A DNA stretch of 63,988 nt, counting the filler, from an uncultured Methanoregulaceae archaeon (GTDB lineage Archaea; Halobacteriota; Methanomicrobia; Methanomicrobiales; Methanospirillaceae), in the NCBI GenBank assembly GCA_964530035.1. It is 9 parts of 9 records of this genome, joined end to end, with 100 filler letters (N's around TTAATTAATTAA, not from the genome) between each part and the next. Parts side by side here need not be neighbours in the genome. Positions count along the whole stretch, not along the records: positions 54,511 to 62,041 come from CAZGXZ010000129.1; 8 more parts are not named here. The stretch is one strand, 5' to 3'. This document shows positions 10,340 to 63,988 of this stretch, piece by piece. The notes under the pieces are model-generated. The model saw nothing but the letters and a program-made list of their open reading frames with translations, ran no database searches and was not told the origin of the DNA. Each line of letters begins with the position of its first letter. Position 1 is the stretch's first letter. The position numbers and the translations under genes were made by a program.

Positions 10340-10690
10340 CTCCGTTGAGGTCCGTGTCCGGGATACTCCCGGTCCACGTTCCCTTCCTGGTGCCTTGTCC
10401 GGGATTGTCATGATCCCTCATGAAATACCCTGTGACATAAGGAAGATCCTCTCAGGGCTTGCTTGATATATACATGAACAGGAGTTCACACCCGGACCAT
10501 GAAAACCCCATCCAAAATCTTCTTTTTATGGCCCATTTTTAACATTTCATTGGAAATCCACCATATCTTCAATTGTATTCACCGCATTATGGGAGATCTC
10601 CATCAACGCTAATTCCGTTCACAGGAGCTCAACTGAGCCTTCATAGGGAGGAGTGCAGAGAAGGTTACTCCTCAGGCAGGGGCGGCTTCG

Positions 10691-46844: not shown

Positions 46845-47030
46845 CAGAAAACAACGGGTAACAGGAAACCGCTTGCGGCTTGCCATGGCTATCGTATGCA
46901 GGGGGTCTGAGGGGGCGGCAGCCCCCCGGTTCTCATCTCTCTCGTCCTCTGCCTGTTCAAGGTGAGAACCAAAAAACCAGCTCTGTTAGAACCCAGTGAT
47001 CTGGGTTGCAGCTGAAGGAGATCTCTCATG
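46845..47030. repeat. Dispersed structured non-coding repeat, copy A (partial, at contig start)
   Basis: ttgcc.ggctatcgtatgcagggggt..gggggcggcagcccccc.ggttctcat...ttgcagctga.ggag shared with 55.7k and 63.9k/63.5k. Confidence 0.9.
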
Positions 47031-47149: not shown

Positions 47150-47977
47150 TCAGCCCCCTGCATATTTCAGGGCGAGTTCCTCGAGGTCCCCAATCTCCAT
47201 AGGGGTCGGGATGGTGAGGACGGGTTCCCCGGTGACGGTCCCGGCGAGCTCCCGGTATCGTTCAGCCTGGGGAGAGCCCGGGGAGAACTCAAGCACGGTC
47301 ATCCGGTTCAGCTCGGCCTGCTGGACGACCGGGTCACGGGGGATGAATGCAGCCAGGGAACTGTTGATCCGGGACGCGAACTCGGCGAGGAGCTCCCGTT
47401 CGCCCGGGGTCCCCCGGGCGTTCCCGATGACCCCGGCAAGGCGGCACAGGCTTTTCCTGTTCCGTGAAAGTCGTTCAATGGCCTTTGATATATTGTTTGC
47501 AGCATAGAGCGCCATCAGCTCCCCGGACGTCACGAGGTAGATCTCGCGGGCATACCCCTCCCGCATCGGCATCGCGAACCCGCCACACACCACGTCCCCG
47601 AGGACGTCGTACACGATGATCTCGGAGTCAAGGGCCCCGAGCCGCTCGAGGACCTGGAAGGTCGCGATAATGCCCCGCCCGGCGCAGCCAATCCCGGGCT
47701 CGGGACCGCCGGCCTCGACACACCTGACCCCTGCGAAACCCGGGAAGACGATCTCCTCAATGCTGATGTCCCGGTCTCCCTTTTCCCTGACAAGGTCCAT
47801 GACGGTCGGAATAAGCCTGCCGTGCATGAGCATCCGGGTGCTGTCGCGTTTCGGGTCGCAGCCGATCTGGAGCACCCGTCTCCCTGACAGGGCGAGGGCT
47901 GCCGACAGGTTTGCCGAGGTGGTCGATTTCCCAATCCCACCCTTGCCATAGATGGCGATCTGACGCATCTTCATCAT
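47150..47977 (-). CDS. cfbC: NifH-like ATP-dependent reductase, probably CfbC (coenzyme F430 biosynthesis)
   Basis: [40 protein letters not shown]; no nifDK/nifI on contig. Confidence 0.8.
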
Positions 47978-55317: not shown

Positions 55318-55900
55318 CCCCTTATAACGGGGGTGAATACCATTGACGATGGAGTGGAGTTCAGCAGAGCCTGAAAATCACAATTTTAACGAATAATTCT
55401 TTCCTGAATGTCATAATTGCCAGGTAACCCGCATGATTGAAGAAACGCGGTCTCGAATTTTCAGACCTTCCGGGATGAGTCCAGACCTTACCGGATACAA
55501 GCAGCCTCACCTTTCCCGGTAGCCCATTCCCATCAACCCTTCAGTGGGGGCATGCCCCCACACCCCCGGAAGGATACCCTGCCGCTCCCGAAGGGCGCCC
55601 CGGCGGCGGTCTCACGGCCTTTCATGAAGATGATAACTGCAAAATCTCGCGGAAGATGATAACTGCAAAAACCATACCACAAACAACCAGGATACAGGAA
55701 TCGCCTACGGTTTGCCACGGCTATCGTATGCAGGGGGTTTGGGGGGCGGCAGCCACCCGGTTCTCATTCCTCTCTTCCTCGGCCTGTTCGAGGTGAAAAC
55801 CAAAAATCAGCTCTTTTGAAACCCTGATATCAGAATTGCAGCTGATGGAGACCTCTTATAATGGGGTAAATAAAGTGAAGGTCGAAAGGATTTCAAAAAG
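55318..55900. repeat. Dispersed structured non-coding repeat, copy B (full ~534-nt unit plus restart)
   Basis: Colinear with 63513-63988; cttata..ggggt block recurs at 55321 and 55855; multiple hairpins. Confidence 0.9.
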
Positions 55901-56075
55901 CCGTTTTTTCGGATCTGATTGCCAAACATATTTTTAGTAGCGTAAGACAGACTCCTGTTCTCCCCGGCTCACCACGAACGTTCCTTGATCTGACTCCTCT
56001 CTTATATTCGTGAGCCTTTTCCGGGAGATTTCCAACTTTCTGAAGGAAAGCCCCGTCAGGTCCCATCCGCAGTCC

Positions 56076-57673: not shown

Positions 57674-57857
57674 CGTGATGGGAAACGGGTACCTGGGGGA
57701 TTCGTTAAAAGGTATTTATTTTGAGGAAAAGGGATTTTCACTTGATTTCGCGGACGATAGTACCCCCGGGTTTAGCAGACGAAGAGGAGCCAAAAACAGA
57801 TGATGAGATGGATGATTTCGAGTCCGGACCTGGATACTTTTCGGGATCAAGTCCCCT
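57674..57857. repeat. Direct repeat of 59049-59231 (shared 3' gene tail and downstream flank)
   Basis: 184 vs 183 nt, highly similar with one indel. Confidence 0.92.
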
Positions 57858-58187: not shown

Positions 58188-58425
58188 TTACTGTGCGATC
58201 TGTCGCCCAAGATTTGGGTTGCAAAGGGCTTGAGCCGTATGAATCGAAAGATTCACGTACGGTTCTTATAAGGGGGAGGTGGAGTAATTCACTTTCGCTA
58301 TCCGACTAATCTATTAGGCTCATCAAAAAAAGATCCTGACCCCTGATAAATCCATCATCGTTGGTTAAAAAGGGTCTAATCCAAATTATAGCAGGTTCAC
58401 CGGGATATTCTGGCATAATTATGTT

Positions 58426-59048: not shown

Positions 59049-59231
59049 CGTGATGGCAGACGGGTGCCTGCGGGACCCATTAAAAGGTGTTTATTTTGAG
59101 GAAAAGGGATTGTCGCTTGATTTCGCCGACGATAATATCCCGGGTTTTGCAGACGAAGAGGAGCCAAAGACAGATGATGAGCTGGATGATTTCGAGTTCG
59201 GACCTGGATACTTTTCGGGATCAAGTCCTCT
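59049..59231. repeat. Direct repeat of 57674-57857
   Basis: See above. Confidence 0.92.
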
Positions 59232-63465: not shown

Positions 63466-63469
63466 TTGC

Positions 63470-63988
63470 ACTGTTGAGATCCTATGACTGATATTGCAGC
63501 TGATGGAGGTCTCTTATTACAGGGTAAAAAAATTGAAGAGAGAGAAAATTTCAATGGAACTAAAAATCTCAGTTTTTAACGAATAATTCTTCCTTCCCTG
63601 ACAGGATGAGCAGGTAATCTGTATGGTTGAAGAAACGGGATCTGAAATTTTTCAGACCTTTTTGAATGTTTCCAGACCTTGCCGAATATCCATAGCCTCA
63701 CCTTTCCCTATAATCTTTTAACATCACCCCTTCAGCGGAGGTATACACCCACACCCCCGGAAAGATACCCCGCCGCCCCCGAAGGGCGCCCCGGCGGCGG
63801 TCTCACGACCCTTCATGAATATTCCAAACTGGAAAAAAACACTGAAGGCTCAAAACTACCAAAACCATACCCATAATAACCCTAATAATGGAATCGCCAA
63901 CGGCTTGCCAGGGCTATCGTATGCAGGGGGTTTGGGGGGCAGCAGCCCCCCGGTTCTCATCCATCCACTACCCTGCCCGTTCAAGTTG
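63470..63988. repeat. Dispersed structured non-coding repeat, copy C (runs off window)
   Basis: Colinear with copy B; begins with the ttgcagctgatggag.tctcttat block that ends copies A and B. Confidence 0.9.

Follow-up and report, generated by a model that had tools for sequence, protein, structure and literature searches.

Introduction

MITEs are typically shorter than 500 bp, and integrons mobilised by flanking MITEs have been described (PMC10969869). Among methanogens, IS5-linked MITEs of 140-252 bp are tabulated for Methanosarcina and Methanococcoides, and the host genomes listed in that table do not include the family of the organism studied here (PMC3852290, Table 4). In bacteria, G+C-rich hairpins with short tags are known as REP, BIME and REPIN sequences with a RAYT partner (PMC3733652). 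The parts of the literature on which we drew (PMC3733652, PMC7002104, PMC13343696, PMC10969869 and PMC3852290) together cover the MITEs of archaea, the use of homologous ends to assign MITEs, integrons flanked by MITEs, and the REPs of bacteria. We found in this literature no description of the element reported here or of its hairpin; supplements to archaeal IS surveys, ISfinder and most subscription papers, which were outside this scope, could hold these families.

The window, the whole stretch of DNA that we analysed (63,988 nt, filler included), is a string of contigs from the assembly of an uncultured Methanoregulaceae archaeon (2.36 Mb, 229 contigs, 86% complete). It holds copies of a dispersed repeat, which we found to be a real and old composite MITE with IS5-family ends. 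As far as the tabulated IS5-family MITEs of methanogens are described, the repeat is like them in having no ORF, in sharing its inverted repeats with IS5 elements, in lying at intergenic A+T-rich targets and in being multicopy. It differs from them in its length of 630-760 nt, which exceeds that of a typical MITE, in its X-core-X build with four inverted repeats, in its ~80 loci, and in having internal blocks which are more conserved than its ends. Like the published MITE-flanked integrons, as far as their description goes, it has two direct copies of a small MITE which would move the DNA between them and leave one outer duplication; its cargo, however, is a non-coding hairpin mosaic rather than genes, and it was amplified genome-wide. 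One hairpin of this cargo, H, resembles the REP, BIME and REPIN sequences of PMC3733652, so far as we could compare them, in being a G+C hairpin with a short 5' tag which is extragenic and can form arrays of alternating units. Unlike them, it has GAT as its tag with no GTAG or CGTC terminal tag, has no RAYT, and lies inside inverted-repeat elements of several families.

Results

Copies of the repeat in the window and in the assembly

A sequence-only reading of the window had reported three copies of the repeat, all of which were present, on three contigs (C128, C129 and C226). The conserved blocks which it listed were also present, as were the 534-nt internal repeat and the spacing from cttat to ctatcg (400 nt in copy B and 401 nt in copy C). 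Copy B starts with a truncated left X module which has lost its outer left end (55318..55371, plus strand; X profile match to model positions 43-95 and motif scan), and the right inverted repeat of this module lies at 55360-55371 on the plus strand, identified by the same profile match and motif scan. It continues with a non-coding core of ~440 nt (55372..55808, plus strand; core profile match at 55366-55825, with non-triplet indels) and closes with a right X module (55809..55902, plus strand; profile match and sequence), which has inverted repeats at 55809-55820 and its right end at 55902.

Three features stand out within the core of copy B. Hairpin A, a G+C hairpin with a C-rich tail (55544..55567, plus strand; sequence and alignments), also occurs in ISL3-type MITEs and has 12.8% substitutions. 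Hairpin H (55579..55609, plus strand) is 31 nt long, is common to four element types by sequence comparison, and is built of an 8-bp outer stem and an inner CCC-GAA-GGG arm, with the GAT tag 5-7 nt upstream. Block A' (55715..55758, plus strand) ends in an inverted relative of hairpin A and is lineage-specific: of 151 genomes searched, that of the window alone has its exact pattern.

The other copies were delimited by sequence and profile search. Copy A (46845..47030, plus strand) comprises the 3' third of the core from the contig start, with block A' at 46883-46927, and then a truncated X module at 46979-47030. Copy C (63467..63988, plus strand) has an outer left inverted repeat at 63467-63478, an X module and a core, with H at 63770-63800 and A' at 63908-63951, and is cut by the contig end. 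A fourth piece on the minus strand (10456..10639) has no core and consists of an X module (X profile E 1.6e-18) followed by the inverted arm of a long X form, the latter read by eye. This fourth piece was absent from the sequence-only reading, as were the terminal inverted repeats and the target duplications. A similar end was observed in contig C50.

The prediction that there would be many copies genome-wide proved right. A profile search of the assembly with the core gave 91 matches in 63 contigs (22.8 kb), which merged into 79 loci, and by the same kind of search the core and module X together took up 29.6 kb, or 1.25% of the assembly. In the contigs of one public run, which include other organisms, the summed depth over two conserved blocks was ~80-120 times that of single-copy sequence. 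Of the 91 core matches, 45 were within 60 nt of a contig end, and many of the breaks in this assembly are therefore due to the repeat. Named records which contain the central motif belonged largely to Methanolinea and other Methanoregulaceae. Matches of 20-mers in bacteria were probably chance matches in G+C-rich genomes. The repeat element was not found in plasmids, nor H in viral contigs.

The spacers between the conserved blocks are not freely diverged, as had been thought: the whole unit is homologous, with a mean pairwise identity of 76% between 21 near-full copies, and most 10-nt bins are 73-92% identical to the consensus. The absence of a shared ORF was upheld, as the consensus has stops in every frame and 88 of the 92 indels would shift a reading frame, which leaves no transposase ORF.

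Element architecture and target duplications

The ~534-nt internal repeat exists because a module of ~95 nt, X, lies at both ends of the element. X is 92-97 nt long, or ~186-187 nt in a long form, and each X has inverted repeats of the GGCTYTGTTGAA type at its borders, so that the element has the terminal inverted repeats of a MITE. A scan with the end motif gave 82 one-mismatch matches, compared to 5 for the reversed control.

We found decayed target duplications of 8 bp around the element. Among the 79 loci both outer ends were callable in eight, all of which were used, and in these 45 of 64 flank positions match. Mismatched left and right flanks gave a null expectation of 2.69 per 8 (21.5/64), and the observed value was not reached in any of 200,000 draws; for duplication lengths of 5, 6, 7, 9 and 10 the p values were 0.04-0.34. 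Six of the eight elements had at most two flank mismatches, and two (C17 and C86) had no clear duplication. On both sides the inner flank is similar to AAAAAATC (15 left, 33 right). This similarity could be a relic of the duplication of X in a core that was tandem or circular, with poly-A making this signal weak. There was one degenerate candidate for an X-less core junction (C65), and 14 of the 85 X matches were away from a core, one of them with a near-perfect duplication. A joint which skips copy B, as an empty site would, was not seen in the contigs of four runs. Given the X-core-X build, the IS5-type ends and the decayed target duplications, we conclude that the repeat is a composite MITE which dates from an old burst, and the MITE-like nature proposed for it earlier is confirmed.

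Cognate IS5-family elements

In a set of 30 DDE_Tnp_1 loci from the family there were 11 elements, 1006-1009 bp long, which have the same inverted repeats as the repeat. Exact 8-bp duplications surround 7 of the 10 such IS elements which have both flanks, and all three transposases tested from elements with these ends passed NF033579 (IS5 family). The ends of the repeat are thus those of IS5-family elements of the same methanogen family; the sequence-only reading had recognised no named family, and had listed a match to known IS ends among the results which would count against it. The cognate elements fit, in size and duplication length, the ISH1 subgroup of the IS5 family, which we take to be 900-1150 bp long with an 8-bp duplication; the window element differs in being without a transposase.

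In the organism's own assembly, at 86% completeness, there were no matches for an IS5-type transposase (PF01609, PF13737), and ISL3 and Mutator transposases were also absent from this genome. At the ends of contigs C25, C49, C165, C208, C6 and C81 (L139-L144) we did find stubs of a young IS, six in all and identical to one another, whose inverted repeats are the same. Two left/right pairs of these stubs have perfect 8-bp duplications, both insertions being inside old repeat copies, and depth over the stub was 3.5-4.4 times single copy in four runs. The body of the young IS between the stubs was looked for and not recovered. From the paired stubs, the perfect duplications and the stub depth, the cognate IS is therefore likely to be present and recently active in this organism, the MITE copies being old.

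Two further small elements with these ends were observed elsewhere. A 294-nt MITE in genome G016 (L190:1501-1794) has IS5-type ends and an exact 8-bp duplication and contains the REP-like hairpins of G016 without H, and a palindromic MITE of ~130 nt from an uncultured archaeon (L153:2390-2521), among unrelated flanking genes, shares this end type and is likewise flanked by an exact 8-bp duplication.

Uneven decay within the element

The tree of the 21 copies was star-like, with 14 of 18 inner branches open and a median tip of 0.14. Substitutions were distributed very unevenly along these copies: 28/651 in H (4.3%) and 47/914 in A' (5.1%), against 15.7% in the left body and 20.9% in the spacer, and none of 20,000 column shuffles matched the low-substitution windows of H and A'. 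The outer inverted repeats had 37/264 substitutions (14%), and the two members of target-duplication pairs differed at 19/64 sites, or ~15% per copy. As the ends and duplications have decayed far more, H and A' have been conserved after insertion, whether by selection or through conversion. Hairpin A shows some conservation too, with 8% substitutions at G/C sites, and part of the low divergence of H may be general to hairpins. The earlier suggestion of selection on motifs rather than recent transposition therefore stands for these two blocks and for the age of the copies, and falls for the remaining blocks.

The loop bases of H are as fixed as its stem bases, there are just 1-3 compensatory pairs per stem, and the folding of the whole element was no better than that of shuffles (z-scores of 0.74 and 0.06); the conservation of H and A' acts at the level of sequence. 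A search of Rfam over copy B gave three chance matches only (E 0.77-9.8), and five related loci gave none. Elsewhere in the window, Rfam Intron_gpII (group II intron 3' domains) matched at 58230-58347 with 56.6 bits and no long ORF beside it, in a stretch which by eye sits between ~140-nt direct repeats near 57700-57840 and 59080-59220.

Hairpin H in other elements and genomes

The H pattern occurs 48 times in the organism's own genome and is present in 18 of the 70 further genomes from the family, counts which do not represent independent events as the carrier genomes are related, and in 0 of 180 genomes from five sister families. Outside the window element, it was found in MITEs of 190-224 nt whose ends match ISL3 elements, with exact 8-bp duplications in 6 of 6, and, at one of 30 loci, in the leader of a decayed ISL3 element. 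It was also found in the 3' tail of a subclade of IS256-family elements: the pattern detected it at 3 of 30 loci, inspection by eye added one, and L028 has it as well. Inspection by eye also showed other G+C hairpins behind the transposase, in the tail of sister IS256-type elements (L400, L401, L402 and L419).

A third type of carrier is a MITE of ~299 nt with a further end type, which we sampled with an H-free query, taking 30 of 42 matches. All 30 carry H or a variant of it, with substitutions of 7% in H, 13% in the ends and 14-19% in the body, and in 9 of the 30 the outer stem of H is kept around an insert of ~100 nt. In this long form (L431, L433, L439, L443, L447, L450, L454, L456 and L458) the insert holds another conserved G+C hairpin. 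Lastly, H occurs in arrays without inverted repeats, as in the tandem arrays of G016, and in G001 there are 260-nt units. The G016 arrays also contain a different hairpin with a GCGTC tail (by eye), and a further REP-like double hairpin lies downstream of H in this genome (L005, L016).

Two chimeric elements change type at H. L052 joins an ISL3-type left arm (92.5%, 80 nt) to an IS256-type right arm (92%, 164 nt) with the switch exactly at H, and L440 joins an ISL3-type left arm (88%) to a third-type right arm (80%), again with the switch at H. Ordinary recombination within the one stretch of homology that the parent elements have in common could also give such chimeras.

The earlier idea of a REP with a RAYT partner found no backing, as no linked Y1 HUH transposase was found: Y1_Tnp had no match in the organism's own genome and one in 151 family genomes, at a locus without H. 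This sole match (L121:1456-2481) lies in foreign-looking DNA. None of 30 TnpB loci had H or hairpin A nearby.

Genomic context

All three window copies lie 3' of genes, as had been noted. Genome-wide this is a bias and not a rule, with 74 of 111 flanking genes ending towards the element compared to a baseline of 41%, and 16 of 32 fully flanked loci being convergent compared to 15.5%; it should be noted that these counts and baselines rest on our own simple gene calls. Relative to the upstream gene, elements were found in both orientations (32 and 42). Copy B is flanked by a gene for a histidine-kinase ATPase domain on one side and a VIT-family gene on the other. Copy A adjoins the end of a NifH/frxC-family gene (47150-47977, minus strand; Pfam E 2e-105).

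H-bearing elements flank an apparent uvrA-uvrC-uvrB operon in four of five genomes from three genera (L235, L135, L236 and L237). Genome-wide, 9 of 92 neighbour orthologues were element-adjacent (p = 0.11 compared to gap-bordering genes, not significant), no shared regulon emerged, and the intergenic sites which are shared mostly have different carriers or orientations. GIY-YIG was found as one gene per genome in five of five genomes, where it looks like uvrC, and DUF559 in one of five.

Discussion

Taken as a whole, we consider it probable that the repeat is a non-coding composite MITE with IS5 ends, likely spread in trans, and that H is likely a DNA recombination site which is recognised by a protein. 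The MITE part of this explanation is very probable. Module X would have arisen from an IS5-family element, and two copies of this small MITE may then have captured an older, hairpin-bearing core. If the transposase used the outer ends, X-core-X would have spread as one unit, with an IS5-family transposase likely acting in trans in an old burst. H may have been kept uniform through sequence-specific recognition together with recombination or gene conversion, and is likely to be a site at which dispersed transposon types swap arms. Crossover at H is not frequent here, as six of the eight elements tested keep matching flanks. On its own, the role of H as a putative protein-recognised site which promotes exchange and conversion is a tentative proposal, to which we give somewhat less than even chances; counting against it, we identified neither a nuclease nor a binding protein for H. 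We nevertheless rank it ahead of the alternatives for H.

The most serious of these, though we think it unlikely, is that the repeat is a MITE in which H and A' are kept as folds in read-through transcripts, as an attenuator or 3' guard, insertions behind genes thereby becoming tolerable and unrelated elements having captured H for this benefit. The excess of genes pointing into the element and of convergent loci fits this, as do the position of H after the stop codon in IS256-type elements, four sisters of which have other G+C hairpins in this place, the survival of the outer stem of H around the 100-nt insert, and the lean of G-U-type changes in A' to the plus strand (14 vs 4). However, loops are as fixed as stems, compensatory pairs are few, both orientations relative to the upstream gene occur, and a bias to the 3' regions of genes is expected of any insertion element. 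We regard it as very improbable that the unit is a multicopy gene for a structured non-coding RNA, as the sequence-only reading had also envisaged. It does have local stable hairpins and conserved blocks, but Rfam matches were not above chance, folding was no better than that of shuffles, there was no covariation, and the transposon ends and target duplications account for its dispersal.

It is more doubtful than a transcript hairpin that H is a REP-like unit which moved itself by means of an HUH nuclease and inserted into several transposons and free arrays. Its sharp shared borders of ~40 bp with the GAT tag before the stem, the tandem arrays without inverted repeats and the 260-nt units, and its patchy presence in one ISL3 element among 30 loci and one IS256 subclade would suit such a unit, but a Y1_Tnp gene was missing from the organism's own genome and the single one in the 151 family genomes was at a locus without H, none of the 30 TnpB loci had H nearby, and there was no H-less copy among the 30 third-type MITEs. 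Lower still do we place an ordinary, neutrally decaying MITE in which H only seems conserved, through low mutability or ascertainment. H is 94% G+C and pattern searches in relatives favour an intact H, but substitutions at G/C sites outside the blocks are four times as frequent as in H (462/2493, or 18.5%, vs 4.4%), the 21 copies were recognised along their entire length, and H was absent from the query which retrieved the third-type set.

As a MITE, the repeat is a known kind of thing, though a large and abundant one. What would be unexpected to a specialist is a hairpin which outlasts the transposon ends, is found within a single archaeal family in IS lineages that are not related to one another, and lies where chimeras switch. 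A broader reading, which we hold more loosely than the role of H as a recombination site, is that H could be a family-wide, host-maintained DNA module taken up by four unrelated transposon lineages (IS5, ISL3, IS256 and a fourth end type) which exchange arms, so that these MITEs would be interchangeable halves joined at one dedicated recombination site and H an archaeal counterpart of REP hairpins without RAYT. In either case the 31 bp of H form a defined target with which the persistence of REP-like hairpins in archaea can be studied, no RAYT having been found here, and H also bears on whether non-autonomous elements are domesticated or recombined through a shared internal site.
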